This document shows positions 2,100-63,980 of a stretch of DNA of 64,000 bases, in pieces. The position numbers were made by a program, and so were the translations under genes. The stretch is from contig RSEE01000040.1 in assembly GCA_003971905.1 (NCBI GenBank), forward strand, positions 496,001 to 560,000, in the 5' to 3' direction. Position 1 is the stretch's first letter, and each line of letters begins with the position of its first letter. The notes beneath the pieces were generated by a model, which was not told the DNA's origin, searched no databases, and worked only from the letters and a program-made list of their open reading frames with translations. The DNA comes from Moniliella sp. 'wahieum' (taxonomy: Eukaryota).

Positions 2100-2240
2100 G
2101 GTTAACTGAGCGCTCACGCGATCACCGGTCACCCGGCTGTGCCTCAGGCCCTCAGGTGCGTCTTAGCTACGCATCATGCATCATGCATCATAGATGCAAC
2201 CGGTGTGTGTGACGGGCGGCACGCATGCGACATGTGACAG
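2100..2240. repeat. 7-bp palindrome-spacer cluster (AGCGCT, ACCGGT, ATGCAT, ACATGT cores)
   Basis: ctgagcgctcacgcgatcaccggtcacc; gcatcatgcatcatgcatca; gacatgtgac. Confidence 0.75.
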
Positions 2241-2604: not shown

Positions 2605-2666
2605 CGACGTTCAACGTTCAACGTACGCGTTCAACGTTTTGCGCACTGTGAACGTTGAACGTTGCA
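2605..2666. repeat. 7-bp palindrome-spacer cluster (AACGTT core)
   Basis: acgttcaacgttcaacgtacgcgttcaacgtt ... gtgaacgttgaacgttg. Confidence 0.8.
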
Positions 2667-4834
2667 TGAGAAAAGTCGTCAAGATACACACAAGATGCAC
2701 CTGCATCCAAAGGGGGTGTAGTTCCACGCTTTAGTGGCATCGGTAATAGTCCAGTTCCCTTCAGTGCATACCTTTCTATTGTCCCTCATGCAGTCTCCAG
2801 CCTCTGCAGTAGCTCATGTGTAAAGCAATCAATGTTCATCGTGTTCAACTACCATCTGGAATTGTGAATTCCAACAGGTTATTGAGCCGGATTCTTCCTC
2901 TTGAGCGCCTGCGCATGCCTGCGACAAGATCAACAACAGGAACAACGCAATACCCCGATGACATTGTTTGGCGGATTTCGCTCCCATTTCCAATTCGTTC
3001 GAAGCGCCTCGCTCTCCTCTTCTTCTTCTCCCCTTCGCACAGTGTCCTCTGCTCTTGCTTCTTCCGTACCAACGATTGATACATTCATTACCATTGGCCT
3101 ATTAGTTTCGCCTTAGCACCTACTGTGACACCCGTAGGATGGCTAGTAGTTACTTGGTATACTTGCCGTGGGTATCTCCGACCAAATCTATTTCTCAAGC
3201 GCATATGTCAATGCACCACGCGCCACTACATATCATCGCAATCATCGATTGACCACTTTTCTGAGATCTCATTGCAATGAGATTAGATCGATGATCTCGA
3301 TGATCTCGATGATCGCGCTGACAAGTTCTACTCCTATAAATTTACTTCCCGTTGTGATAAACAAGCGCCAAGCTCCAGATCGCTTGGAAGGGAAACGACT
3401 TTCCGTATATGATTCCCCGCCGGCGCATGCCAATGTGGCAAAACTTCCGAACCAAGGAGCTGTATGTGATGCGTGACGGGGTTCCACGGCACATGTGATG
3501 AATCATGCATTGGGCTATTGCCCCATGCGACATGCATGTGACACGTGATCGCGTGCGCGCGACCCCGGGACAGGAACTGGTATATTGTAACGGAGAACGT
3601 CGTGAAGTTGTGAACGACTGAGGTACTGAGAGGCGCAATTAGTAGTTAGTGCCCAGCACTGGACGCTGAACACGTCGACGCGCTGACGTTGAAGCACTGA
3701 ACGTAACGCTGAACTTCAGCGTTGAACGTGTTGAATGTAGTGGACATTGAACGCTCATTGAAGCTTGAAGGTTGAATATTGAATCCCTCACGTTCATCCG
3801 TTTCCGTATAGCCATCGATGGATTGATTATGCGATGAGTTCCGAGCCGGTAGTGGCCTTCAGCGGTTAGCGTCTCCAGCGCCACCCAAAGGATCAGTACT
3901 CAAAGTTTCAACTGAGGATGGCGACGCCAATGATGAGGTCTAACGCGTCCGCCACAGGAAAAAACGATGGATGAAACGCGGTTATATCTTCTTTTTCACA
4001 TCAGGCTGTGATCAATCTAATGGTCATCGCATTGAAGCTGAGCGCGCTGAGCGCGCTGAGCCTCAGCCGTTGACAGATTGAGTAGAAAGATCGACATGTG
4101 CCACTGAGCTCAGTCGGTCCGGCCGGTCATCGATCATCGGTCACCTGCAATTGGGCTGGAAATCGACAGAGGAAAAGCGATGAGGTGCTGTTAAGCGTCG
4201 AGGGAAACCCGATTGACATATTCGATGTGGGGCATCATGCATCATGCATCGTACACGCGCGTACACAGGATCCGCTCACCCATCCTCGAGTCGAAACTCA
4301 CCGGTGAGGCTCATCGCTCACCCATGCCGGACCCTGCGGCAACCCCGCATGAGGCATGCTCCAGTACTAAGGATTGGGCCCCATTACCGCCGCGATAACA
4401 CACTCTTCACGTTGCCTATGCCAAGTCCGACACCCACAGCACTTGGCACTTGGCGGTCGCCGAGGGTTCGTAGTCCTAGTCAGAATCGGCCGCAGTACCA
4501 GTCGAGATCTGAGACTAGAGATGCTCTCGTCACATAATATGAAATGGCATCCTGTTCGGTGTGCGTATCCACCCCAATGTTGCCTTTCGTGTGTGGTTCC
4601 TGCTAGACCTGACTAAGACCAGCGATTTCCCAGGAACGATGACAAAAAAATCAACGATGGCAAATGCTGGGTTCTACACGTTACAACGTTACAATACTAC
4701 CCATGCTATTACTTGGGTTACTGGAGCGTTTTGCCCGACTCATAACCACCACCATCTCACAACAGCTCGACACATACCTTCACCGCATCGTTTGAGCCTG
4801 TTGTTCGTATCGGGTGGGGGACTCCAACACAACC

Positions 4835-12888: not shown

Positions 12889-14250
12889 TCACCCCAACTT
12901 GTTGGCCTTCTTTGCTAACGAGTCAACCACGTCGCCCACATGCTTGAGGGTCTGTAGCGCAGCCTCGTATGTCTTGTCCTGTGGTGCCTCGTCAAAGACA
13001 ACCAGACACCCATTCCCTTGGTCCAAGATCCCATTGAACATCTTGTCCAAGATCATCTGCGACAGTTTTTGCTCCACCTCCCGCTCGGGCTGACGCACCC
13101 GTTGCGCCACATATCCAATCTCCACCCGCGAGTAGGGCTCAATCACTCGTAGCAAGTTCTGCTCCAGCAACGTGTCGTACAGCTCGGCGAGGTGATTGCG
13201 AATGATCGGATCATTGGACAGTTCCGCTTGGTACTTCTTCAATGCGGTTTCAAATGCCTCCAACGACCGTTCTTCGTGTGCCTTGGCCACGGCCGACATG
13301 GCCTCCACATCCCGCTCTGTCGCCTTCTCCACCGCAGCACCCTTGGCGCCCCATCCCTTGGCTCCCTTGACCGCCTTGGATTCGGCCACCAATGCCGTCT
13401 TGCCTTGGATAATCGCCGCCACATCCTCCGGCAGGTTAAGCATAATTTTACACAGCAGCATGTACTTGAGCGCCAGCCCTGCCCGCGGATCGTTCTGCCC
13501 AGAGAAGCCCTCCAGGGTTTCGAAAAAGTATGAGTAGGCAGTCGAGTAATCCTTGTCTTTCGCATGCAACACACCACTTTGGAGATCCAGTTGTGCCTGC
13601 AGCAAAGGCGGCGTGTACATCGCGTTGGCCGACGTACGAGCCGAAGTGAGGGCTGTCTTTGCCTTGGGGATGTTGGAAATGGCAAAGTTGACCTTCGATT
13701 CCAACAGGTGAACCTCAGTCAGGATCATCTTGTCATCCAGCTTCTTCAGTTCCTTGAGCAGTCGCTCAATTAACGGAAGCGCCTGACGGTAGTTTTTCGC
13801 CTCGTAGTACAGCGAAATCAGCTTGGTCTCAAGACTCTGCTTGAGGAAAATCCGTTTTTCCTCCTTGGCCCAGTCAATGTTTTCCTCGGTAATCCGGATC
13901 TGGGCAGCGCGGGCTGCATCGCCAGGAATGTCGCCAAACAGGTCAATGAGCTGGCGGATAGTTTTGCCGTCTTGGCCTTTGCCAGGTGTGCAAGTACAGC
14001 ATGCGAGTCGCGCACAACGCTTGCCAACGCATCCACGTCGGCCTCGTCGCAGTACAGCTGGCCAAGACGGAGAAGAGCGAGTTCCTGCTCCCAGCACGGC
14101 CTCGCCGGTGGCCGAAGACGCCTTGTCGGCCGGCGGCTGTTGCGCGAGCACAGCCTTGAGCTGCGCCTCGCCCCCGGCGCGGTCTCCGGCTTCAAACGCA
14201 GTTTCGGCAGAGGCGACGGAAGGCAAGGTGCCGGATGCGGGGGTGGCCAT
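12889..14250 (-). CDS. RPN6: 26S proteasome lid subunit Rpn6 (PSMD11)
   Basis: KAKTAK, EEKRIFLKQSLE, LKELKKLDDKMILTEVHLLESK, LDLQSGVLHA.DKDY.TAYSYFFE, LLEQNLLRVIEPYSRVEI; frameshifts in the 5' part. Confidence 0.95.
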   Translation of the reverse strand: MATPASGTLPSVASAETAFEAGDRAGGEAQLKAVLAQQPPADKASSATGEAVLGAGTRSSPSWPAVLRRGRRGCVGKRCARLACCTCTPGKGQDGKTIRQLIDLFGDIPGDAARAAQIRITEENIDWAKEEKRIFLKQSLETKLISLYYEAKNYRQALPLIERLLKELKKLDDKMILTEVHLLESKVNFAISNIPKAKTALTSARTSANAMYTPPLLQAQLDLQSGVLHAKDKDYSTAYSYFFETLEGFSGQNDPRAGLALKYMLLCKIMLNLPEDVAAIIQGKTALVAESKAVKGAKGWGAKGAAVEKATERDVEAMSAVAKAHEERSLEAFETALKKYQAELSNDPIIRNHLAELYDTLLEQNLLRVIEPYSRVEIGYVAQRVRQPEREVEQKLSQMILDKMFNGILDQGNGCLVVFDEAPQDKTYEAALQTLKHVGDVVDSLAKKANKLG

Positions 14251-14521
14251 GGTGGTGGGGGAGGCAGCAGCGGGGCCGAGCAGTGGGCCCAGCGCATCAG
14301 CCAATCGGGTGAGCCCTAGCCCACGCAACGAGTGGCCGCGTCACGCGGCCCACACTGGCGCCCCGCCGGCCGCCGCGATTCCGCCGGCGCGGATTCCGCG
14401 CCGCTGGCAGCAGCAGCAAGGACGCGTGTTGCTTGCCAGTGCTACGGGCCGTGCACGGGCCGGACGAGGGTAGGTATACCCGTCGCAGCCGCCCGCGCTC
14501 GCCCCCACCACCATCGTCATC
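14251..14521. promoter_or_regulatory. Putative bidirectional promoter between RPN6 and RPN7
   Basis: 271 bp between divergent ATGs; contains the 17-bp dyad GGCCGCGT-C-ACGCGGCC at 14334-14350. Confidence 0.6.
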
Positions 14522-15797
14522 ATGTCCGCCGACGAGGAGAGCATCCAGCCCATCCCCAACCTGCACTGGCAGCAGCTTCTCTTCACTGTCGTCACGGTGG
14601 GTATGCGGCTGCGCCCTCGTCTGCGCTCGCTGCTTCGGAGCTGCTCGCTGGCATCGAGGCCGACGAAATGGCACCCTACTATGCTGCTTTGCTCGCCGAC
14701 CCGCTCATCAGCAAGAAGTTGCCTTCTCCGGTAGAGAGCACCAGTGCCCACCACGCGTCTTCGCCTCAAGATCTGCTGGCCAAACTCGAGGAGCGGAACA
14801 AGGAGGAGCTCGCCAAGTTTGATCAGCAGCTTACCAAGGCCACCGAGGAGGAGGGCGAGATGGAGATCAACGCGGTGCTTAAGAACAAGGCGAGCTACTA
14901 TGCCAAGATCGGGGACCAAGTATGTGCATTCCTTTTTCCCTCTTTTTTCTCTTGGTTGCTGACTCGTCCCCTCTGCAGGACAAGGCGATTGCTACTACCA
15001 AGGAGGCCATCGAAAAGGGCGCTGGGCTCGGCAGCAAAATCGACTTGACTCTCGGCCTGATCCGCATCGGGTTCTTCTTTGGAAACACGTCACTTGTTAC
15101 CTCCTCGATTACAGAGGTTAAAAAGTTGGTTGAGGAGGGGGGCGACTGGGACCGGCGGAACCGGCTGAAGGTGTACGAGGGGCTCCACCTCCTCTCCGTT
15201 CGGGACTTTAAGCGGGGCGGAGAGCTGTTCCTCGAGGCTCTCTCCACGTTTACCGCCACCGAGCTGCTGGACTACCATGCGTTCGTGTCGCTGGCTGTGA
15301 TTGCAAATATGCTCGCATTGCCGCGGACCGAGCTGAAGAAGAAGATTCTGAATGCGCCCGAGGTGCTGCAAGTGATTGACGAGCTGCCGCATTTGAGGAC
15401 CTACACCCAATCCTTGTACAATGGCAATTACAAGGCCTTTTTCGAAGCGCTGGCCCAGGTCGAACAGACCTACCTCCTTCCCTCGCGCCTTCTCAATGCC
15501 CACGCACGCTACTACGTACGGGAAATGCGCATCATTGCGTATGCCCAACTACTCGAGTCCTACCGCTCCGTCACGTTGCGATCCATGGCGGATGCATTTG
15601 GGGTAACGGACGAATTTATTGACCGCGAGTTGTCCCGGTTCATTGCGTCGGCACGGCTGCCCGCAGTGATTGACAAGGTGCACGGCGTGATTGAGACCCG
15701 GCGGCCCGATTCCAAGAACGCACAGTACAACCAGATCATCAAGGATGGCGATGTGCTCCTGAACCAACTGCAGAAGCTGTCGCGGACAGCACTCTGA
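14522..15797 (+). CDS. RPN7: 26S proteasome lid subunit Rpn7 (PSMD6); intron about 14920-14979
   Basis: EMAPYY, EEGGDWDRRNRLKVYEG, STFTATEL, RYYVREMRIIAYAQLLESYRS, IETRRPDSKNAQY. Confidence 0.95.
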
Positions 15798-20200: not shown

Positions 20201-20716
20201 GGGCGAAAGGATGAGGATCATATTCATCGAGGAGAAAAGGGGCGAGGTATATATTACCTCGGAGAAGATGCATGGAAGTCAGGGCTGCAACACATATATG
20301 ATCATCCCCGTCTCTATGCGCACTCGCGCACTGTCCACTCGAAGCGACGGTCTCATTGCGTGGTGCGCTGGCGAGAGCGCCGGCTGGAACACTGATGGTG
20401 TTTTCTCCTCTTCCCTCTTCCCTCTTCCCTCTTGACCATAACTGATGCTGCTCCTTTGGGTTTCCATTTTGTCGTTCGGTTTCCTTTCGTTTTTTTATTG
20501 CTGCCGTCCTGGGGGCGATGTTGTCTGGACCAGACCCACATGATCACACATAGTCACCAGGTGTGCTGGACCCTGATTTGTTCTAGACCCTGTTTCTCCT
20601 TGTTTAGGCTCCCCTTTCCTTCTCCGTGTGCCTCAGATTGCATGTTCTCTTCTTCTCCGAGGCATATATACCTCGATCTCTTTCCACTCGACGAATTTGA
20701 TCCTCATCCTTTCCCC
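20201..20716. repeat. Imperfect inverted repeat, arms about 67 bp (20201-20268 and 20651-20716), spacer about 380 bp
   Basis: gaaaggatgaggatcatattcatcgag...cgaggtatatattacctcggagaaga versus the reverse complement of the right arm gaaaggatgaggatcaaattcgtcgag...cgaggtatatatgcctcggagaaga. Confidence 0.8.
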
Positions 20717-21980
20717 CCAGCGGGGCGAGCCACACGTGAACAAACAGCTTCACCTCCAGCCTGGCCGAGGCGAAAGGCAGGGAGGGCGGCCAGCCTGATG
20801 TTCGGGCTTGGTGCGCGCAGCGCTCAAGCAGCATCTACTGTAACACATTCGAGCGTTGTACACCGTGCTAGTCGCCTGCTTGAGTGCTCACTGTCCAGCG
20901 GGGATGCGCTCGGAGCAGGAGGTATATTATACAGCCTTTTATGGCGGTCTGGGCTGTTTGGGGGCCTTGGGCCTTTCCCATCGGGTGCTCGGTCCTCCTT
21001 CTCACGCGGCGCACGGACCTGAGCCAGGGCGAGCAGGAACAATGGAACATGGAAAAGACTGAACTGGGGTGGACGAGAGAGAGAGGGAGGAAGCATGCAT
21101 TAGCACTACTAAGGAATGAGAGGGAAGAGCAGTGTACAACAGCGATGTGCATGGGAGTGTTGATGCCCGTCTGAGGAAAGGCACGACACTGCTCCATAAA
21201 TCTGTTGTGCCGGGGGTGATGTTTTGGACGAACAACTGGCCGTCGTCTGATAACCCCTCGGTGGTGGTGATGATCACCATCAGCTCCCAGCTCTTGGGGT
21301 CGGGATGGGCCATCTGAAGGCAGCCACAGTGGGTCATGAGGCGCACAGCACACTGTGTTTTTTCTTCTGGATCGCTCTCTTCTCGGCACGGGTCTAGCCC
21401 AGGCGGTGTGTCTCTTAGCGGGGGAGGGTATTCGCAGCTTGCACATTACAGGCAGCGGCAGGTGCGTGCGTTTGCATTCCTGCCGCCCACGGCTGCGAGG
21501 GATGCATCCCTCGACTATTGGCTGCTAAACGAGACAGAAACGGGCCAATGTGGGTAGGCACGGCGGTGGGGTAGCATCGTTGGAGCGAAGCGTGAAGGAA
21601 GAGCGAAGGTTGTTGACATTATTGACACAAGCTGATGAGGCGGGGGGGAAGGCAAAGGTGTGCGCGCCCCAGCGCCCATGTCGATCGGATGACTGATTGA
21701 AGGGCGTCAGCAGTGGCGCCCAGGAGGGGGCGTGGGGCAGCCTGCGGCGGGCTGCGCATCACGCGCGTCACGCGTCAGGCGTCCCCCAGCGGGCTGGCGT
21801 GTGTGGGCTGGTGCTGCGCGCACACGGAGCGGGTGGAGCAGCTGGAGATCGATGCATGATGCGGCTGGCCTGCCAATCGCACACAGGCCGTCTGCCCCGG
21901 GGGGCGTGATGCATGATGGGCGGATCGGCCAGGGACGAAAGCTGGGTGAAGCTCTTCAATTAGGAAAATAGTTCACTGTG

Positions 21981-22090
21981 CTTGAAGCTTCAAGCTTCAA
22001 GCTTGAAGAGGGCGTTGGATGTGTTGATCTTTAGAGTGGGTTGCTGACTAGACTGCCTGCTGAGCGCTTGAAGCTTGAAGCTTGAAGCGT
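21981..22090. repeat. 7-bp palindrome-spacer cluster (AAGCTT core) upstream of the Num1-like gene
   Basis: cttgaagcttcaagcttcaagcttgaag; tgagcgcttgaagcttgaagcttgaagcg. Confidence 0.8.
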
Positions 22091-32000: not shown

Positions 32001-32230
32001 CTGGTAATAGCAGGAAATAGCAGGAAACGGCAGGAAACGGCCGGAAACGGCAGGAAACGGCCGGAAACGGCTGGAAACGGCCGGAAACGGCAGGAAACGG
32101 CCGGAAACGGCAGGAAACGGCCGGAAACGGCAGGAAACGGCCGGAAACGGCCGGAAATGGCCGGAAACGACAGGAAACGACAGGAAATGACTGGAAACCA
32201 CTGGAAACCACTGGAAACAGCTGGAAACCC
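32001..32230. repeat. 10-bp tandem minisatellite, consensus C(A/C/T)GGAAACGG, about 23 units
   Basis: caggaaacgg ccggaaacgg alternating, with degenerate units at both ends. Confidence 0.95.
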
Positions 32231-34315
32231 TACCGCTTTCCGGCTGCGGCAGGTCCCTTGGGCCCAACAACCCTACCTGTCGCTGCTACTGCCAGCCACG
32301 GGTTCCCCCCCCACTTGCCTGCACTTCTGCCCCACTGCCCGGCCCCCCATCCCCCAGCCCTCTTTCCAATCTATTCAAGTCCTATCCGGTTGAGAGAATA
32401 GACCAAGGGCGAATCAGATGACGTAGGGACATGTAAATGAAGCGGGCGATGGGTTTGGTACCCCTATTAGTTGGCATTCTGCCCGCCCTGGGCGAATTAT
32501 TACACAGCTCGGAGTCATAATAATGTTGTGTTTTGCCTTACGCAGCACTCTCGTCAGGGAGATGAATATCACGGTGGGTGCGGTGCCGGCCAAGAACTGC
32601 AACCAGGGCATTACCATTTCCTGGAACAATTCAGAGGCGTCGTTCTAGGGCCTTGTCCGGCGGTTCACCCAAACGCGAACGAGCCACTTGAGATGGACTT
32701 CGCGTTTCACTGTCTTTTTATCGTGTTGTTATATGATACGAGGAGCCCACCGGGCCTACGGCCCGGTCAGCTGGGGCTTCGCCCCAGCTTGATGCTGCGT
32801 CGCCACCTTAGCCACCGTTCCCGCTTCGCCACCGTAGCCACCGTTCCCCTGGTCCACCATCGCCACCGTAGCCACCGTTCCACCGGCCACCGTTCCAGGC
32901 TGGAACCCTTCCACGGTGGAGAGACAAAATAATATCACCGATGCTTGCTGGTGGCGCAGCCACCGGGGGGGCTTACGCGATGCTGACCTAAACTGTTGGT
33001 GCAGAAGTGGTACACTTGGCACGCCAGTAGGGTTAGTAATTTTTGTATGGTATAGGGATCTGTACTTTTGAGCAGGAGTGGGCTCATCAGTCGACACCCC
33101 CTGAGGGCCCGAGCGTGCCAACGCTTATGAACTATAGCTAGCAATTGTCACTCGCGTGCACCCAGAACGGAGAGGAGGCTTGAGGGGGTTGGCTGAGCCG
33201 CAGCGCTCAGGCTGAGGGCACTGCAATGACAACTGTTCAAGCAAGGCGTCGTCGAGATCGCAGAGCGTTATAGGTGCAAAAAGGGGAGGGGGTTCTGGAC
33301 ATTTGGACCCGAACACACGAAGAATGGATCGGTGTGAAAAGGAGTTTGGCAGGCTGTGGCTTTATAGTTCAGTGCTACTGATCAAATGGTCCGATTGGGA
33401 TTCCGTTGGTCCAATTCGCAAAGGGAATCTCTCTCAGGACTCATGCATCTGAAGAACATCAGGCACTATGGTGCTTGATGTTGGTAGTGGGGCCTCTGTC
33501 CTGAGATGTATGAACGCATCCGAGCGGGACATTTGCGCCCTCAGCGAGGGCTCAGCTCGGCGCTGAGGGCCAGTAGCGCCCAGGCTCTGACTGAGACCCG
33601 TGCGAGGGGTTTCTTGAGCCCCCTATCAAACTAGTTCGCGAGGGCTCTCTGCCCATATGAGGAGAGAGAGCGTGGGGTTTCCAATCAAGAACTTTTTTAG
33701 GAGACTGTGGGTTACCGGTTACCCGGCTACGGACCGAGAACGAAACGAAAGTGCATACTAAACAGGGTGGCGCCCAAGGTCAGGCCGTGGAGGTATGCGA
33801 ATACGGACCCAGACAGAGAAGATGAAAACAAAGTGACGAACGGAAAAAGGGCGCAACCCGCAGGACGGGGAACGGGTCGGGAGGGCGGACTTATAGAGCC
33901 CCGTACCCTGTCCCATGTCCGTCTGCACACTGAGATCCTCGATATGGACGCGCGGGATGGGGGTCTTACTAGGAAGGGCTACAAGGGGAGAAGGTAGTGC
34001 AGACTGGCTCAGACTGGAGCTGCTCTGCCCGTGCGTGATTTGAAGCGTGTGGGGCCTGACTAGTGGTGACTGGAGAGGTGGGCTCGTGCTGAATGTGGCA
34101 ACCCTCCTCAGCAGCACGCCAGGCGCGAGTTCAGACTGACGCGCTCATAACAGATGCGCTGCGCTGAGGGCGTGACGCGGTGAGGCCTGAGGAGCGGCAG
34201 CTCAGGTCTAGTCGCGAGGCTGACACGGGGCGGCTGACGCTGTCGGGAGTGTGGATGAGGCCGAGGAGGGCTGGGTGCTGTGGGCGAGGCAGCGGAGGAG
34301 GCAAAGCACAGGAGG

Positions 34316-34407
34316 GTGACTAGGTGACTAGTGACTAGTGACTAGTGACTGACTAGTGACCAGTGCGGCCGGTGACCGGTGACATGGTGACATGTGACAT
34401 TGACATG
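34316..34407. repeat. 7-bp palindrome-spacer cluster (ACTAGT, ACCGGT, ACATGT cores)
   Basis: gtgactagtgactagtgactagtgac ... ccggtgaccggtgacatggtgacatgtgacat. Confidence 0.85.
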
Positions 34408-34703
34408 GCGCGGCTAGGGTTGTGAGTTCGGCCTGCAAACGTACGAATTGGATGCGCGTGACGTGTGACATGTGACGCGCGACGGGTGCCTCGGTGGTGC
34501 GTCCTGCATCATGCATCCACATCACGCGTCATGCGCGTCATGCCGTCTGACGCGATCTGCAATCTGGCGATGCTATATTCCACTCGCCTGCCCCGACGCT
34601 CGGCCGGCAGCGTGTGGGAGGTCTCCAAGCGCGCTTTGCTCTCTGCTCCTTCTGCCCCTCCTCCTCCCATGCTGCCGCCCTGGCCATACGCTCTGCCACC
34701 GCC

Positions 34704-36824: not shown

Positions 36825-36896
36825 GGGCGGATAGCTCAGGGGTAGAGCGCTTGCTTAGCATGCATGAGGTCCGGGGTTCAATTCCCTGTTCGTCCA
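36825..36896 (+). tRNA. tRNA-Ala(AGC)
   Basis: GGGCGGA...TTCGTCC-A with G3:U70, anticodon loop TTAGCAT, GGTTCAATTCC B box, downstream T run. Confidence 0.95.
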
Positions 36897-38250: not shown

Positions 38251-38335
<85 letters not shown>

Positions 38336-38362
38336 CTGTTGCTGTTGCTGTTGCTGTTGCTG

Positions 38363-38443
<81 letters not shown>

Positions 38444-38450
38444 GTTGCTG
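38251..38450. repeat. (CTGTTG)n / (CAACAG)n hexanucleotide microsatellite, about 33 units
   Basis: About 200 bp of tgctgt repeats with three 1-2 nt interruptions. Confidence 0.97.
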
Positions 38451-40411
38451 TCAGATCTGTGCAATCGCCTCCGCCATGCGCATGACGACCAGTCGTGCCG
38501 ACGGATGGCCGCTCCAATCCTTGCTCCTGGTACTGCCGTTTGTAGGCAGAGTGAGTGGGTCATTGCTAATCTCAAATTCGCACTTCGTTCCTTCCCATAG
38601 CATCTGTCCCAGCTCCAGACTGGGATGGAAACCCGATCAGTGACCCTCCTGGATGCGCGACAGGGAGCAAATGGCTGAGGTGTTAGGTGCATGCACGTAC
38701 CGCTCAGCGGCAAGGGTGAGAGGGTCGCGTAACAAAGACACTGCCTTGAGTCGATCGAGGCGGGTCAACGGCAGCCACGCCGTCGGCGACGGAACGTGGT
38801 TGGAGGTGTGGTTGCCTTGCACCTGAGCCGGAGTGGGCGCGTCGGCGCGGCGTAGGCCGAGCCAGTGCACAGTCTGTGCCGTGCCAAGATGAGAACGGTA
38901 CACGCGCACAATGTCTAGCCCGTGGGGATCGCCATCGGTCAACGCAAAAGTGGGAGCGCTATCGGCCGAAGAATCGAGAATATAATACACACAAAAGCAA
39001 TGGAGGCATTCAGTACTCAGACGTTCTCATCACCCCACGTAGGGTCTGGGAGAGAAGGTACACTGACCACGGGAAGGTAGTCTGTAGGTTGGCAAGAAAA
39101 GCACGAGCTGCCAAGTCTGGGTACCCTCGTCCCTATATATACACAACATCGAATGCAAAGGTCAGGCGTCACCGTATACTTACGCGGCACGGTCAGTCTC
39201 GAGGGGGAGGGGGGAATAATGGGTATATGCATACAGTGAGAATGGCGCCGGGGCCAAGGAGACCTGGCACGCCAGCCGCCAGGCGGGTCTCGGCCATGGT
39301 GTGGAAAACAGCTTCCTTCTCGATGACCAAGATCCATTCGATGGGCGCCCAGGCTTCCAAATGGGAAATGGCGCCATCATCTGGGATCAAGGCCGGCGCG
39401 GGAAGATAGACTTCAGCTGGAAGGAGGGGATCCGGGACGGTGTTGAGGTGGCAGGGGGGTAGGGGTGCATTTATTCGCGGGCCGAGGGGAACGATGTGGA
39501 CTGGCCCGTGGAACAGACTTTTCGGGGCGGCCACCACGCCCAGCGCGGGGCGCTGCACCTGGAAGGCCACTTGAAGATGCTGGACGATGCGTTCAACAGT
39601 GCGTTGGTTGCCAAATAGGGGAACATCCGAATAGAACAGATCACGGATAGTAATGCTCATCCCTCGGCAGAGGCTGTTGTGAATCTCCTTGAGTACAGCT
39701 ACCCAACGTGCTGCAAATGAGTAAATCGATGCAGCCGCGGAAGCGATCGGCGGATGATGTGGGAGTGGACCATATACGTCAGTCATATCTGTTCTGTCGG
39801 CATGCGGTATGGGCTTCTCTTGCAGCGCTGGATGGATGGCGTGGATGGATGGCGTGGAGTCAGCTGGGAAGGAGGGAGCGACACGTACCGAGCTTCACTT
39901 GCCCTTGGGCGCTGTTGTGGAATAGACCTAGCGCGACCTGGTGAGGCCCGGGAGTTCCACTGTACCGCGGGCAAAGAGAAAAAGAGACACAGGAGTCAGT
40001 ATGCGCCCCGATGAATCCAGTTCTCGTCTTGTGCGTGACAGGAGAGATTACGGTGTGGATGCAGGCGGGCAGGTACAAAGGGGCCACACAGTTCCCACGA
40101 TAGCATCTCAGGAGGAAGGATACCCACAGGATCAAGGTCACTTGACGTCGTGGGGCAACGGCGTGATCCGAGGGAGGTGCTCCTGGAGGGGCATTTTGGA
40201 GCTGGTAGAGCTGGCGCATGAATGCACGCCACGAGGAGGTGAGCAAACGCAAGACCCGTCGTTGCTCGTGAGCAAGCTGCTGCTGTTTGGTAGCAGCTGT
40301 GGCTGGTGTGGTCAGTGCTTGAGGTGCTGCTCGGTCGGTGGCATTCATCTGCATCCAAGGGGTCGCGTGGGTGTCGGTGGAACAGCGGGCTGGGCTAGCA
40401 GATGCATGCAT
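38451..40411 (-). CDS. SPO11: Meiotic topoisomerase-VI-A-like endonuclease Spo11; several introns
   Basis: TIRDLFYSDVPLFGNQRTV (catalytic Tyr), LGVVAAPKSLF, ILVIEKEAVF, GYPDL, LTDGDPHGLDI (Toprim DxD), ELGQML..TKCEFE; stop TGA at 38453-38451. The start is uncertain. Confidence 0.9.
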
Positions 40412-41674
40412 CAGTGTTCTGTGGTGCAATGCTTTACGTGATACGAAAACATGTAGGGTTCCCACCCGCAAGCAACCCTCCGTTAGACAGGGATAGTGGA
40501 ATTGTAGGACACACATGCAGACCAGAACGCAGGTAAGACACAGCAGAGTCTTTATAATACGAGCGACAGCGAATGTGTTGAAGAGATGGAGGAGGAGTAT
40601 CGATGAGTTGAAGCGAAGTGCGAGATACAGGTGGTGGCAAGGCAAAGCCAGAGGCGTAAGTTGTGTTACAAGAACAAAGTAAACCTACTTTTGAATAGAT
40701 AGTTATACTCTGAACTGAAGAAGACCTAATAGCTCCCACCACGTTGGAACAGACTGATATACGGATGAAGCTGCTAGGTGATCACATAAGGTCACGGTGA
40801 CCCTTCTCTCACTACCACGGCAACCTCTTCTACCAGTTGTCATGCACAACTCTTCAATGCTGGGGCGCTGGGGCAATGCGCCAATCATTAATCACGCCTC
40901 TCATCTCCTGCGCGTGTTGATAATATAAGCATCATCACCCCTCTTATCCTCGCGGACGCTCCTCTGCTCTTCGGCGGTACCCTCTCTGCTTGGAGCCACA
41001 TCCTTTATTCTCCTTCTTCGGCATACAAAACTCTTTTCCGGCCTGAGCGCCATGAGCACCTGAGCACCCTCCGCTATGCAACAAAAACGCTATACTTTTT
41101 TTGCTCTCCGCCAGCGCTCAACAGAGCTCAGGGAAGAAGGGTTTTTGTTCGATATTACCACAGGATTGCTATACAAGATCCCTCTCTATAGATGCAACGC
41201 TCGTTAAGACGTGATCGTGCGATTGTGCAAGATAAGAACATCATCCAGTAGCACTTCCTCGAAAGGGAATTGTCCGAGAGATAACTTCTGGTAAGCGCAG
41301 AGAGGCTATCACATATCATCGATGAATCACATCGACATCGACAATCGACGGCCATTGATAATCACATCGATCATCCCGAAGTCTAGTATATAGTACCCAA
41401 GTACTCAAGCCCTCGGGAAACCTCAGGCTAGCCACTAATAATGATCCTGGTGACCCAGCGACGTCCTAAGTGCAGTTATGCAATGGCAGAGAGAAGACAG
41501 GAGCTGGGTTGAACCCAGACTGAGGATCAGAAGAAGAAGGAGATGAAGGAGAAGAAGGAGAAGAAAGGAGAGCGGCACTAGGCCAGGGGATAGGGATACT
41601 GGTGTGATGCCCGGATGAGTAAGATGGTCAGGAGTGCCGCGGAGGTGGCTGGCCCATAGGACCCTGGTCAACAA

Positions 41675-42215
41675 CTAAGCCTTAGGCTTAAGCCGCTAAG
41701 CCTTATGGGCCTAAGCCTTAGGCCTTAGGCCGCCACAGGCTTTTGGCTTGAGGCCAAGGGCCTAACGCTAGTGACATTGTTGTGACATATATGTGACATG
41801 TGACACGGCAACATGCAACATGTAGCACTAATAGTGACTAGTGACTAGTGATGCATGGTGCATCTTGCAAGTGATGCGCGATGGGTGACATGTGACACAT
41901 GTGGCTTGGTCCGAGTGCGTTGTACGTTGTTCGGGTTAGTGCGGCTTAAAGCTTAAAGCTTAACACCCGTTACGCGCTGCTAATTACTAGTTACTAGTTG
42001 CTAGCTATGCTAGTTCCTCGCGTTGAGTCACTATGTTTGCGTGTGGGGTATCGTTGCTACACGTGCGTTAGGCCTGACATCCCCTCAGGCCTGAGGGATA
42101 GCTGAGGGATAGACGTTAGGAGCCTTTTTGTAGGAGGCAGCAGTGAGAGACAGTAGGACATATCCTCTGCGCCCCCCGCGGATGTTCTGTCACATGTCAC
42201 ATGTCAACGTTCAAC
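41675..42215. repeat. Dense cluster of 7-bp palindrome-spacer arrays (AGGCCT, ACATGT, ACTAGT, ATGCAT, AAGCTT, AACGTT cores)
   Basis: ccttaggccttaggcc; gtgacatgtgac; gtgactagtgactagtgatgcatg; cttaaagcttaaagctt; ttactagttactagtt; ccctcaggcctgaggg; tcacatgtcacatgtcaacgttca. Confidence 0.85.
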
Positions 42216-43064
42216 CACGAAGACAAGACATTACTATTAGGTACAAGTTCGTAGTTACTCGTTTTATTACCAGAGTTATTATAGTTCCCTGCTTTTTTGC
42301 GTGGCTGGCGGGCTGGGATAGGGAATGGATACTAGTGCAGGTGCCAACATAGTCGGACTCGGCGCTCTCACATCTCTGCTACTTCCACCCACAGTCTGTT
42401 ATTGCACCCGCAGGCTCCGTCTGGCACTCCGTGCTCCTTCTCAGATCTCATCTCCCATTTCCGCCTCTCCACATTCGTTCAGTTGGGAACTGGAGGATCG
42501 GATCCCAGACTTGCAGCTGGTAGTGAATTGCATTGCCCCTGTCCTGCCTTCCAGGAAGGAATACCTGAAGCTCTGAAGGAAGACACCGAAAGAACAGGGT
42601 TTGGGCTACCAGTGTCACCATGCCACTACGCCAGTGTGACGCCACATGCACCGCACTCAGCCTGAGCGAGGAGGCACGATCACCCGTCGCCGGTCACAAA
42701 CATCCACTATCCAATAGTCAATAGTTCAATGCATCATGCATCATGTCCATCGATGCTCGAGATGATCTCCGACCCCTTGCTCCTGGTTCATGATTTTGCC
42801 GCTTCGGTCTAATTACCTTCTGGGGGTCTGGCAGTCAGAGTCATCGATTATCTTTAACGAGAGGCCGCGGCCAAATATGTTCGGCTGGCCCTTAGGAGGT
42901 TAGGCCGGTTAGGCCTTAGGCCTTTTCAAGTAAGGCCTCCTCCTGGAGCATCCCGGAAAAGTTCCGCATCCCACAGCCACCATTCTCGCTCCCGCGGATC
43001 TGCTGGAACGCGCCACAGAGGTATGGGTTACCACTTTTCGTGATCCCCTCAGAAGGTTGACGCG

Positions 43065-43330
43065 TTGAACGTTGACGATCGAGATGATCGATCATGATGA
43101 TCGATGATCCGATCTATGCTAGTCACGCGTCACGCGTCACGCGCCACGAGGCTTCAAGCTTCAAGCTTCAAGCTTCACGCACTTCATGCTTCAAGCTTCA
43201 AACTAGCTTCAAGCTTCAAACTAGCTTCAAGCTTCAAACTAGCTTCAAGCTTCAAACTAGCTTCAAGCTTCAAACTAGCTTCAAGCTTCAAGCTTCAAGC
43301 TCTTCAAGCTTCATGCACTTCATGCCGCTC
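43065..43330. repeat. 7-bp palindrome-spacer arrays plus five copies of the 18-bp unit GCTTCAAGCTTCAAACTA (43188-43277)
   Basis: tgacgcgttgaacgttga; tgatcgatcatgatgatcgatga; tcacgcgtcacgcgtcacgcg; (gcttcaa)n. Confidence 0.9.
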
Positions 43331-44463
43331 AGGCGAGTCCTCAGTACCTCAGTGAAGCTTGAAGCCTCAGGTCATAACTCTACCCCAAGCCTCGAGCCCC
43401 TGAGACCCTCCTGAGGCCTGAGGCCCAGTACTAAGTACTAATCGTTGAGATCCTCAGGTCCTCAGGCGCAGGGGTGCCGAGCCGCTGAGGAGAGCCGCTC
43501 CGAGTAACGGGGCTGTATTATACTCTCTGTCTGGATCCCCACCTGGGCGAAGTACGGAATAATATACGTACTGGATCGGCGGGGTTAATTGTTGAAGCAG
43601 GAGGTTGTCAAGGTTTTTGCCTGAGCCTTTTCAGTTTCTTGAAGCCGCCGGCGTCGGCTCCGCGGACTATGTTGCACTCATGTCGATACATACAGAGGGT
43701 CGATGTGCGACAGAGGCTTCTGTGAAGGTGAGGCGTGAAATGTGAGATCTGAGATCTGATATTTGAAGCGTGTAATTGCGATCGGGGTGTATACGCCGGC
43801 CTGGATGCGCTCCACCAAAAGCTTCACGAGCGGGCGCAGGTCGGCGCTCGCCCCCACCAGTGTGGCAGGCAGCGGCGATACGTAGCACACGTTAGCACGA
43901 CCCACAGGGTCTGGGGCTTGGCGGCTGCAACGTCGAGGACGTTGAGGCCTGAGGGTGGCACCTCTGTGGCTCCCTGTCGCCACTGACTAATGGATGCGGC
44001 CACCGAAGGCTCGCTCAAGGCGTCAGTACTCAGTACCGCCAGTACTCGGCCTCAGTACTCGATGTCCTCTCTCAATCTCGAAGCCAGGCCTCAAGCTCTC
44101 ACGCAATAAGCCGGGGATAACGAGTACCTAGCAACTGATGGTAAGTAGGGCTGGTAACCTACAAGACGGGAGCGAACTGGTCACTGACTAAGAATATCAT
44201 GCATCAAACTTACACAGCTTACTCTTCTGCGCTCTCTTCTCCGTTTCACGACCATTGGGATCCTCTCGTCGGGGGCTAACGTTAAAACTCGCTCTCCTCA
44301 TCGACGACCCCCTTTACCCTTCCCAACCACCCCCACCAACCCTCCACGCTCCTCGACGACAAGTCCTAAACACACCACCTCATCACGATCCCTCTCTCCA
44401 CATATCCAGTTCTTTCTACCTCCAGCCCCGGCCCCTGCCTCTCCCTCTTCCCGTTCCTGCACC

Positions 44464-52271: not shown

Positions 52272-52638
52272 GGCTGGCGGATGAGCAGGGCGGTGTGGTG
52301 GTGGTAGTAGTAGTGTAGGGGGTGGGGCATGACTGGCTGCGAGGCGAGGAGGCTGCCCCAGCTGCCCCAGCCTGGCCGGCGCGGTGATCGGAGGATCGAT
52401 GATCCCATCCTCAAATCATGACATGTGGCATGTGACATGTGACATGCGTGCCCTATGCGGTAAGCATTACATAAGCACGGCCAGACTGGCAAGCTTGCCG
52501 GTTGAAATTTGAAAGTCAAGGGTTGAATGTTGCACGTGCACGATTGACTACGCCGTCTGTGCTGCAATCGCTAGAGACAGTGTCGTCCCAAGGCCCCACC
52601 TAGTCCTGCTGCCTCGCCAACTGCCGACTGCCCTTCCT

Positions 52639-59442: not shown

Positions 59443-59535
59443 TGGACGAATAGGGAATCGAACCCCAGACCCCAGACCTCACACAAGCACAAGGAAGATG
59501 CGAAGCGTGCGCTCTACCAACTGAGCTATCCGCCC
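59443..59535 (-). tRNA. tRNA-Ala(CGC) with 13-nt intron and an extra 7-nt tandem duplication before the T arm
   Basis: Reverse complement GGGCGGA TAGCTCAGTTGGTAGAGCG CACGC TTCGCA [tcttccttgtgct] T GTGTG AGG TCTGGGG TCTGGGG TTCGATT CCCTA TTCGTCC A; G3:U70; T-run terminator. Confidence 0.85.
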
Positions 59536-62099: not shown

Positions 62100-62854
62100 G
62101 AAGAAAGAAGTGAAGCTCGTCGTGGTCCTGCTGAGTGTGGGGGGAGGTGGGAAGTGCAGAAGCGATGGCGGCCGAAGCTGGTGGTGCCGTTTGCGCAGAG
62201 GGAGAGGGCGGGAACAAGGCAGCGAGGGAAAGGTAGAAGGTGCGAGCGACTGGTGCATTTGAGGCAGGAATGTTGGGTGTGGAGGAAGATGTCGGGCAAG
62301 GTGGTTGGCTGGTGGTGGTGGTGCGGTGATTGTGGCGGCGGGAGGGGAGGAGGGTAGGGCAGGGGCAGGTCCGCAACGTATGCGTGGCGGCGGATGGCTG
62401 CTGCATCATCCCACAAAGGAGAAAGAAGAGGGGGGGGTGGCGGTGGTGTGCGGTCGAATGGAGGCCAGGACGAGGTGGGAAAGAGGGTGGAGGTGACCAG
62501 AGGCGGCAGCGAGGGAAGATGTTCGGGCAGCGCCTGCCGTGGGCCTCAACGACTCGCCTATAACCGCGCGCCAACCGAGGCTGGACAACAGCGATCAACC
62601 GTAGGACTAAGCACGTCCAACCCCGCCTTGTTTTTTTGCTGGCCCCAAGGCGCAACTGCGGGTCAGCGACGGCGGTGCGACGGCACAAACGCCGGTCGTG
62701 TGGTTGTGTGAGAACAGGCGGGCAGCGGGCCAGTGTCCGGCGCCCTCCCGCCGCCGCACGGCCTAGACCGATGGGCGGCTCGGCCCAGACTGGGCCCAGA
62801 CTCCGGCCCGCCAGGCGCGGTACAGTCGCCCCCCGCTGAACCTCGGTTCTCTCG

Positions 62855-63112
62855 CATCATGCATCCCCTGTCCCAAACGATGCATCATCCATCACTCGCA
62901 CTCTTCTCAGACGGCGGTCTCAGCTCAATCTCAGCCCAGGCGCCGTGCGCCCGCCTGTCGCATGATGCATGATGCATGATGCATGATGCATGAGTACGAG
63001 TTGCAACAGTGCCTCAGCCTCAGGCAGGTCTAACTCAGTATTGGTACTTGACAAGCTTGACAGTACTCACCGGCCCCAGATCTCAGATCCCCAGACGCAC
63101 TCAGAGATCTCA
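62855..63112. repeat. 7-bp palindrome-spacer cluster (ATGCAT x4, AGTACT, AAGCTT, AGATCT) upstream of the HSF gene
   Basis: gcatgatgcatgatgcatgatgcatgatgcatga; caagcttgacagtactcaccgg; cagatctcagatc. Confidence 0.85.
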
Positions 63113-63884
63113 GAATAGGAGTCTCCGACACTGCCAAGTGCCTGGTCCTGAGGAAGGCGATGGCAATGCCTCCAATACCCCGGAGGACTGACTCAGTACG
63201 TGGGCAGTCACTGCATCCTCGCCCCATCGAACCCCGCAGGAACATTCACCGTCCGCTGGCCTCTGGAGGCAGACGCCAGGACATGTGTGACATGTGACAT
63301 GGGAGTGACAGATGCAGTCCAACACACTAATCATCAACATCAAATATCAATCACAATAGCACTTGAGAGCTTGAGAAGGAGGCACCGTGGCAGGAGTGTG
63401 GTGCTCTTTATTGTGCCCCCATTTTGGTCGCTTTTCGTTCTCCTTCCTTCCGGGTCCTCTCTCTGTCGTGCAGAGATCGTATCCCACATATCATACACAT
63501 ATTTACGGCACACCTTGCTCATTCCCGTACATCAGATTCTCAGAGCCAACATTCTCCACACTCGTTGCATCTTCGTCGCAGCCACGACAGTCTGTCGGTG
63601 CCTTGGATATCGTCCCAAAACTATAGGACGTGCTGAGAGGCGTGCGGACATGAGAAACACAACAACGGCGAAAGAAGACTTGATTAATGCAACTGAATGC
63701 ATGCTCCGCTTAGCCCATTTCATGCCGGCGCTTTCCTTTTACCCTCGGGCTCCTTTCCGTACGTCTGCTCGTAGTTTTGTAGTCCGCGAGGGAGGTGTGT
63801 GGGGAGTGTTCTATCTGAGATATATATCAGCGCGAGTGTCTCACTTCCACATTGCGCGTGTATTGTATGTTCCTGTATGTTCGG

Positions 63885-63980
63885 TCAAGCTTCAGCTTCA
63901 AGCTTCAAGCTCAAGCTTCAAGCTTCAAGGTTGTCGGAGCCGCACTTGCCTTCACATTTGTCACATGTGCATGTCACGAC
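63885..63980. repeat. 7-bp palindrome-spacer cluster (AAGCTT, ACATGT)
   Basis: tcaagcttcagcttcaagcttcaagctcaagcttcaagcttcaag; tgtcacatgtgcatgtcac. Confidence 0.8.

Follow-up and report, generated by a model that had tools for sequence, protein, structure and literature searches.

Arrays of T-N-A plus a 4-bp palindrome in intergenic DNA of Moniliella sp. 'wahieum' follow a flank-copy rule suggestive of templated insertion

We analysed a stretch of 64,000 nucleotides of Moniliella sp. 'wahieum' (assembly GCA_003971905.1, contig RSEE01000040.1, positions 496,001 to 560,000 of the forward strand), referred to below as the window, whose intergenic DNA carries short tandem arrays in which each unit is a T-N-A trinucleotide followed by a 4-bp palindrome. 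The content of guanine plus cytosine (GC) in the window is 50-67%. Domains found among its 150 open reading frames (ORFs) include an RSN1/CSC1 channel, the proteasome subunits RPN6 and RPN7, ATG5, adaptin and RuvBL/TIP49, together with a Spo11-type domain (39196-39894, minus strand), Pkr1, PIG-F, an eRF1-like protein, a PHD finger and PRA1; several of these domain genes are split across frames, like intron-bearing genes. The best named match of the RPN6 ORF is in Tilletiaria anomala (65% identity), followed by other Ustilaginomycotina, and two further relatives stand at 83% and 79%. Judged by this gene content, the window is nuclear DNA from a basidiomycete of the Ustilaginomycotina, the smut and Exobasidium subphylum, the nuclear assignment following from the presence of intron-bearing genes for proteasome subunits, adaptin and RuvBL.

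Exact tandem arrays were defined as at least two copies of a unit (14 bp or more at period 7). The window holds 53 such arrays at period 7, 10 at period 8, 13 at period 9 and 9 at period 10; most period-7 arrays have 2-5 copies, and the longest spans 34 bp. The unit is a 6-bp palindrome plus one base in 39 of the 53 period-7 arrays, where random 7-mers from the window give a chance rate of 11.1%, and in all 39 the palindrome begins with A and ends with T, with no case of C..G, G..C or T..A. Palindromic symmetry at periods 4-6 and 8-12 is at or below random rates. A preliminary description of this DNA, made by eye from the sequence, had proposed such a rule, namely an A..T palindrome of six bases with any core, followed by a single spacer base that is mostly C or G. 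The hexamers that it named are present within 5 bases of all 21 of its coordinates, and 15 of the 16 possible cores were found in the arrangement TNA-core-TNA, the missing one being that of ATATAT. The zone that it singled out as densest (41675-43480) is indeed filled with short arrays, 22.4% of its bases lying inside runs of TNA plus palindrome; over the whole window such runs cover 968 bases.

The count suggested in the preliminary description, of palindromes between T-S-A trinucleotides (S, C or G), was made against 200 dinucleotide shuffles of the window. The arrangement TSA-N4-TSA occurs 137 times, and in 85 of these the four central bases are palindromic, compared with 58.0 ± 7.5 and 3.7 ± 2.0 (maximum 10) in the shuffles. 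The cases with non-palindromic N4 are at chance level (52 observed, about 54 expected). When all 64 trimers were tried in the frame XYZ-pal4-XYZ, the counts were 39/56 for TCA, 34/51 for TGA, 5/10 for TTA and 4/5 for TAA, and every other trimer had at most 8. A given 4-bp palindrome that recurs across a 3-base gap has TCA or TGA as its linker in 45 of 99 cases, and other gap lengths yield nothing comparable. These counts confirm that the symmetry excess is real and far beyond chance.

On one point, the spacer, the preliminary description needs correction. The middle base of TNA is C in 28 runs, G in 26, T in 4 and A in 3. ORF-free DNA outside the runs already offers 377 TSA sites against 150 TWA sites (W, A or T), and the preference is for this reason only about threefold once availability is allowed for. 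An obligatory C or G at this position, as would be left by an APOBEC-like or Top1-like lesion, is weakened as an explanation by that modest preference. The unit is better written as TNA plus a 4-bp palindrome than as a 6-bp palindrome plus a spacer. Two explanations had been set aside in the preliminary description, and our counts agree on both. A transcription-factor motif, or a cluster of binding sites for one, would require a fixed core, yet 15 of 16 cores occur in the same context, while plain slippage does not account for a symmetry that is restricted to period 7 and to T-N-A.

The smallest members of the family are isolated 12-mers that can be stated as a formal rule: relative to TNAxy, the sequence TNAxy-y'x'-TNAxy has 7 extra nucleotides, in which xy is first copied in inverse and TNAxy is then copied directly. 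It can equally be described as a triplication of TNAxy in direct-inverted-direct order, with the self-complementary T.A of TNA shared between the inverted copy and the third. The pattern TNA.X.rc(X).TNA.X (rc, reverse complement), with the same N in both trinucleotides and an X of two bases, occurs 102 times on the two strands, compared with 0.53 in shuffles. With an X of one base it occurs at the chance level (4 versus 4.7), with three bases there are 3 instances versus 0.05, all of them in a single period-9 array, and with no filler at all the duplication is not enriched (72 versus 68.8). Replacing the outer pair of TNA while keeping X at two bases gave 1 case for CNG, 2 for GNC and 0 for ANT. 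An unbiased search for any 5-mer followed by the reverse complement of its last two bases and then by the same 5-mer returned 156 instances, whose logo has T (111/156), N and A (114/156) at positions 1-3. Pentamers other than TNAxy took this form 54 times, compared with 10.8 in shuffles; about 19 of the 54 are second readings of ATGCAT and ATCGAT arrays. Several of the others start with CNA or TNG, and the TNA site rule for this reason looks consensus-like rather than absolute.

Of the 46 isolated TNA-pal4-TNA occurrences, 32 have identical and 10 have complementary middle bases, the other 4 being mixed, so the TNA is duplicated directly and not mirrored. Among the 32 with the same N, 23 extend by two bases (xy or y'x') on at least one side, and 20 do so on one side only. 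Isolated TNAxy repeats at distance 7 number 30; 18 of them have rc(xy) as their filler, 10 have a half-matching filler, 1 has rc(TN) and 1 has a different filler altogether, which gives a fixed polarity in which the palindromic bases come from the xy side rather than the TN side by 18:1. Isolated runs of length 12 fall into a single phase class, T..y or its mirror, in 10 of 12 cases, a result whose nominal probability is to be discounted because it was noticed post hoc. A flank extension on at least one side is present in 61 of 79 chains, where about 12% would be expected by chance. The sole exact mixed chain (42190-42213) carries both extensions, its left units copying the upstream flank TG, which fits the left core CATG, and its right unit the downstream flank AC, which fits the right core ACGT. 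The phase and polarity of the isolated 12-mers reject the idea that they are decayed remnants of longer arrays. In arrays of 14 bp or more the boundary phases are mixed and the lengths do not follow 5+7n; a rule in which array boundaries keep the T..y phase is unsupported both in the long arrays of the window and in 124 AAGCTT-type metagenome arrays.

Beside the usual 4-bp cores, TGA is in places followed by the longer even palindromes CATATATG, CACATGTG and CGATCG (41781-41800, 41886-41903 and 43072-43082). These share their outer bases with the neighbouring 4-bp core, as if palindromes also grew from the centre.

After merging there are 56 loci, 49 of which fall within the 17% of the window lacking any ORF of at least 120 amino acids in any frame; this enrichment test has some circularity, since the units themselves contain stop codons. 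The individual loci are given below in order of position, with z denoting folding relative to shuffles.

2107..2191: TGA GCGC TCA CGCG, the 12-mer TCACC GG TCACC, then a (TCATGCA)3 array
2607..2664: inverted array pair (ACGTTCA)n / (TGAACGT)n, arrays at 2607 and 2649, 12 nt apart, z -2.8
3759..3784: chain TGAAGCT TGAAGGT TGAATAT TGAAT, with the same design at metagenome locus L033
4037..4061: the sole period-9 case, (TGA + GCGCGC) x 2.8, that is, TNA plus a 6-bp palindrome
4127..4250: 12-mer TCATC GA TCATC and a (TCATGCA)2.7 array
21764..22088: (TCACGCG)2 and the 12-mer TGATG CA TGATG
21985 and 22066, within the preceding locus: inverted pair of AAGCTT arrays, TCA type then TGA type, 63 nt apart, z -4.8
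34181..34531: TGAGG CC TGAGG; (TGACTAG)3.9; GGTGA CC GGTGA; (TGACATG) units; TCA CGCG TCA
40685..44187: 3.5-kb stretch without an ORF of at least 120 amino acids around the densest zone, 13.1% of bases in runs; adjoins the ORF with the Spo11-type domain (39196-39894, minus strand)
41675..43480: densest zone, with cores GGCC, CATG, CTAG, AGCT, TGCA, TCGA, CGCG and GTAC, 22.4% of bases in runs
42188..42215: mixed chain tg-TCA CATG TCA CATG TCA ACGT TCA-ac, all four TNA being TCA
43188-43291: higher-order repeat of 18 bp, perfect, x 5.8, combining one TCAAGCT unit with an 11-bp unit, TCA + AACTAGCT
43943..44060: 12-mer TGAGG CC TGAGG and (TCAGTAC) units
52394..52514: (TGACATG)2.6 array and the 12-mer TGAAA TT TGAAA, in a gap of about 400 bp between ORFs facing away from each other
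62854..62993: single TCATGCATC-type copies and the longest array, (TGATGCA)4.9, 34 bp
63286..63929: (TGACATG)2.3 and two (TCAAGCT) arrays

In the higher-order repeat at 43188-43291, the core of the 11-bp unit is one base short of the 8-bp palindrome AGCTAGCT.

The gene-flanking position of these ORF-free loci, several of them 20-300 bp before likely start codons, would fit a selected element that is read through its structure or bound at TSA every 7 bp. Proposed roles for such an element are promoter architecture, nucleosome exclusion and the provision of stop codons in all frames, and every TNA is in fact TGA or TAA on one strand, with the 7-bp period placing stops in all three frames. We consider selection a very improbable explanation. 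Confinement to non-coding DNA is equally expected of stop-bearing insertions whose length is not a multiple of 3, no protein can read "any palindrome", and the flank-copy rule and its polarity are predictions of a copying error and not of a binding site. The protein lattice suggested in the preliminary description does not explain why the core should be self-complementary, and a lattice that reads TSA only is rejected by the chance level of TSA at 7-bp spacing when the core is not palindromic. Its structure-read mini-hairpin finds little backing, as single arrays exceed composition-matched shuffles in folding by a small margin (z -1.4 to -3.1), and a z of -4.8 is reached among the inverted array pairs only. 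A search against Rfam families matched no array, the only matches in the window being two tRNAs elsewhere, and a scan of 40600-44300 for bacterial-type promoters and terminators stayed at the shuffle level.

To place the arrays in a wider setting, metagenome contigs picked for at least 3 copies of AAGCTT plus C or G were used as a control (at least 121 stretches, 454 kb, GC 0.28-0.67). Arrays of this kind appear, among the matches listed, in every GC class, including probably bacterial or marine contigs, and have random boundary phases. With the seed core left out, 88 of 1517 TNA-N4-TNA cases in the 454 kb of listed metagenome DNA have a palindromic N4 (5.8%, the chance level), versus 73 of 152 in the window, and the grammar is therefore a property of this genome, not of array-bearing DNA in general. 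Non-seed 12-mers number 14 in the listed metagenome loci versus 5.4 in shuffles, with 70 in the 64 kb of the window, and 11 of the 14 lie in 163 kb of mid-range-GC contigs. Two loci have the design in a form that can be read directly. L086 (621 bases) has three TGAAGCT units followed by TGAAATT TGAAA, with a separate TCTCA GA TCTCA. L033 reads ct-(TGAAGCT)x3-TGAATAT-TGAAT with both flank extensions present; its contig carries eukaryotic genes, including a BCS1 fragment with 90-92% identity to Russula species over 43% of the query. As a lead, from a small sample chosen on one array type, the same design appears to be present sparsely in at least one mushroom-forming basidiomycete. The two loci and a fivefold excess suggest that the process is older and wider than this lineage.

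These loci also bear on whether the arrays could have arisen in assembly or sequencing, which we regard as scarcely conceivable. The same design is found at L033 and L086 in independent metagenome assemblies, and in the window dozens of different units are set in unique sequence between well-conserved genes. No mode of sequencing error known to us would write palindromes templated by the flank at TNA alone.

Slippage driven by structure is a further alternative. Near-self-complementary 7-mers would form slipped hairpins that escape repair, and intrastrand templating would keep them symmetric, so that the arrays would be structure-driven microsatellites. The arrays are nearly self-complementary, the inverted array pairs fold well (z -4.8 and -2.8), the long arrays have the random boundary phases that slippage gives, and AAGCTT+S arrays with at least three copies are widespread among the listed metagenome contigs, whatever their GC class (at least 121 stretches). 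However, C..G or G..C palindromes would pair more strongly and none is seen (A..T in 39/39), there is no symmetry excess at other periods, and the single arrays fold only weakly. Isolated 12-mers of less than two copies with a fixed phase and polarity are not expected from slippage or from random decay. Hairpin-driven slippage accounts for the way arrays grow, but taking these points together, we judge slippage of this kind decidedly unlikely as the source of the arrays.

The geometry of the 12-mers could also be that of an enzyme. Elements of the IS5 and PIF/Harbinger types duplicate TNA or TWA, and hairpins of the hAT, Transib and V(D)J type leave P nucleotides. The arrays might accordingly record the footprints, or the aborted cuts, of a TNA-targeting cut-and-paste transposase. 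In such a scheme the target is duplicated by a staggered break, one flank is closed as a hairpin and reopened two bases from the tip in the manner of P nucleotides, and local re-insertion builds the arrays. Several features fit: in 32 of 46 cases the duplication of TNA is direct and keeps the middle base, the geometry is rigid, with enrichment for an X of two bases only, the site preference is consensus-like, TNA being far above CNA, TNG and others, the filler, like P nucleotides, takes its sequence from the flank, and the loci are clustered in a few intergenic islands. Against this, none of the 150 ORFs of the window has a transposase domain, and a scan of the window for inverted-repeat pairs with 2-9-bp duplications returned only chance pairs and self-matches of the arrays; apart from these self-matches, it yielded no inverted-repeat element bordered by a TNA duplication. 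The filler has no constant remnant of an element end and instead comprises 15 different cores, and duplications of 5 bp or 3 bp without filler are not enriched (72 versus 68.8). A symmetric cut should produce neither the 18:1 bias in the side of the filler nor a TNA that sits at positions 1-3 of the pentamer instead of at its centre. PIF/Harbinger (Tourist/PIF) elements, moreover, are stated in the available text of PMC4561436 to excise precisely in general. Because the two-base ruler and the choice of TNA look enzymatic, a transposase-type break with a one-sided hairpin is kept as the main rival, though we think it unlikely.

The reading that we favour, and hold with about as much belief as doubt, is that templated insertion of 7 nt, recurrent and specific to TNA sites, left the arrays as scars, which replication slippage then lengthened. 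On this best reading they are a mutational by-product and not sequence-read elements. Among the three candidates in the preliminary description, a structure-read element, a protein lattice and a fold-back or template-switch process, it is the last that gains from the isolated TNAxy + rc(xy) + TNAxy, with its TNA directly duplicated and its middle base unchanged. Such an event might begin with a nick or a 5' end at TNA, from which strand-displacement synthesis would extend for a few nucleotides. The polymerase would then turn round onto the displaced or the complementary strand and return to the original template, where the new T.A end would pair with the TNA site. The central mismatch would usually be corrected to the template, giving the 32:10 excess of identical over complementary middle bases. 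A mirror event would copy the two upstream bases instead. Repetition of the event at the regenerated TNAxy, together with slippage, would build arrays, and events on both sides of one TNA would build chains whose cores differ while the middle base stays the same.

The core is free in sequence yet always symmetric because half of the palindrome is copied from the bases beside the site, and the period is 7 because TNA contributes 3 bases and the core 4. The flank-copy rule accounts in this way for the free symmetric core, the 7-bp period, the constant middle base along mixed chains and the polarity. The fixed polarity appears to fit a directional polymerase step better than a symmetric cut.

Several points weigh against templated insertion by a polymerase. 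The direction of the event, insertion as opposed to deletion or decay, is one that we infer from the phase statistics, with no ancestral or empty site seen, and part of these statistics, the 10/12 result, is post hoc. The mixed boundary phases of arrays of 14 bp or more, whose lengths depart from 5+7n, mean that slippage or other processes must be added. The complementary-N class that would be expected from an uncorrected inverse copy is the minority (10 versus 32). A polymerase model leaves the sharp two-base ruler unexplained, and this ruler looks enzymatic, as does a specificity in which TNA is used and the equally self-complementary CNG is not. The class of template switch in which return point 4 precedes point 1 was unobserved between human and chimpanzee in the available text of PMC5453318, and the known small inverted triplications, as given in the available text of PMC13334657, have copies of about 150 bp with a 30-bp spacer, thirty times larger than those seen here. 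Finally, the loci sit in gene-flanking DNA and may have a function.

A more far-reaching reading may be put forward tentatively, as a possibility that we rather doubt: an endogenous basidiomycete DNA "writer", specific for T-N-A, that repeatedly inserts flank-templated palindromic units of 7 nt and does so at a very high rate in this lineage. A candidate for such a writer would be a nicking enzyme, a domesticated transposase or a route of lesion repair. If there is one, it would be a main source of new intergenic sequence, of inverted repeats and of stop-rich spacers, and would amount to a mutational signature of a new kind with its own sequence rule.

If the arrays are indeed scars of templated insertion, a single copying error yields "conserved symmetry with free sequence" without selection, which would be a caution against taking compensatory-looking changes as proof of structure. 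The process would constitute a mutational signature with an exact rule, TNAxy -> TNAxy-y'x'-TNAxy, that can be counted in any genome and used to trace the responsible enzyme or repair defect. In some intergenic regions the process would have written as much as a fifth of the sequence, and it would therefore shape promoters and supply hypervariable markers.

The window has other repeats and features. A hexamer microsatellite, (TGCTGT) x 34 with 96% matches (38251-38451), adjoins the ORF with the Spo11-type domain (39196-39894, minus strand). A 10-bp unit, GGAAACGGCC, is repeated 20.6 times at 32010-32228, or alternatively a 20-bp unit 10.9 times; GGAAACGGCC contains GGCC/CCGG palindromes and no TNA. 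An inverted repeat of 54 nt (20201-20254 and 20664-20717, 83% complementary, arms 409 nt apart) encloses a (CCTCTTC)3.9 array; no target duplication and no link to the TNA arrays were found for it. A degenerate pentamer array, (ATAGC) x 16 at 1336-1416, breaks the rule of TNA plus palindrome. At 12892-15794 the proteasome lid genes RPN6, on the minus strand, and RPN7, on the plus strand, are arranged head to head, with their ORFs overlapping at about 14320-14340. Two tRNA genes are present, at 36825-36896 (plus strand) and 59443-59535 (minus strand); the second, of 93 bases, probably bears an intron and overlaps a short (ACCCCAG)2.4 repeat at 59462-59478.

In kind, the process would belong with template-switch mutation, inverted triplication and microsatellite birth, here in an apparently undescribed TNA-specific form. 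The preliminary description knew of no system with this rule. No description of the TNA flank-copy rule was found in a full-text literature search of incomplete coverage, nor did five exact array 14-mers match in literature text. L033 and L086 indicate that the rule is not strictly private to this genome.

The arrays resemble microsatellites in their head-to-tail copies (53 exact period-7 arrays), and unlike microsatellites they are constrained in the symmetry of the unit (39/53 versus 11%), with an excess at period 7 only. Intergenic heptamer-repeat arrays of bacteria share the 7-bp period, the intergenic position and, at times, the inverted pairs (here 2607/2649 and 21985/22066). As characterised in the available text of Rehm et al. 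(2015, PMC4692102), these bacterial arrays consist of one arbitrary heptamer in long opposed arrays; the bacterial unit is not palindromic, whereas the arrays here have palindromic units, mostly 2-5 copies, varied units side by side and a fungal host. Palindromic microsatellite-like repeats are also described from Fusarium mitochondrial genomes, where they are thought to be mobile or mutagenic (PMC7218506). They are likewise repetitive palindromic units in fungal non-coding DNA, but they are mitochondrial whereas this window is nuclear, and neither a TNA rule nor a 7-bp rule is met with in the available text of that report.

Transposon excision footprints have in common with the 12-mers a duplicated short target that flanks a tiny palindromic filler of fixed length, templated by the flank. 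They differ in that here the window has no element or transposase, the filler is one-sided and the duplicated 5-mer is asymmetric about TNA. Set against the 3-bp target duplication of PIF/Harbinger, TNA is repeated with the same N in 32 of 46 cases, but the repeat reaches 5 nt on one side. Footprints of the hairpin type (hAT, Transib, V(D)J-like) share the flank-templated palindromic bases and do not share their origin, which would be from either flank (here 18 versus 1). Mariner/Stowaway excision leaves element ends behind, according to the portion of PMC4561436 available.

Parallels are also found among template-switch mutations. In the four-point model, a reverse-complement copy of adjacent sequence is made, and only classes in which the return lies beyond the departure were observed in the available text of PMC5453318. 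As in such events and in quasi-palindrome mutagenesis, adjacent sequence is copied here as its reverse complement, and small inverted repeats arise de novo that mimic compensatory change without selection. Unlike the classes observed, the return here would lie 2 nt before the departure point, so that xy is copied twice, and the events are far shorter, add sequence, use one trinucleotide and are reiterated into arrays.

A further parallel is offered by the small inverted triplications (DUP/INV/DUP) that a 2026 report (PMC13334657), in the text available, ascribes to failed processing of Okazaki flaps and two template switches, in connection with loss of FEN1/Rad27. In those events the copies measure about 148/160/148 bp, the spacer 30 bp and the junction 6 bp, and site specificity is lacking. 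They share with the 12-mers the direct-inverted-direct order, homology at the return junction (here the T.A overlap), the need for two template switches and a product that is itself prone to slippage. Here, by contrast, the copies are of 5 nt, there is no spacer, the junction is T.A, exactly 7 nt are gained and the site is T-N-A. By this analogy, the event described here would be a minimal, site-specific version of the small inverted triplication.

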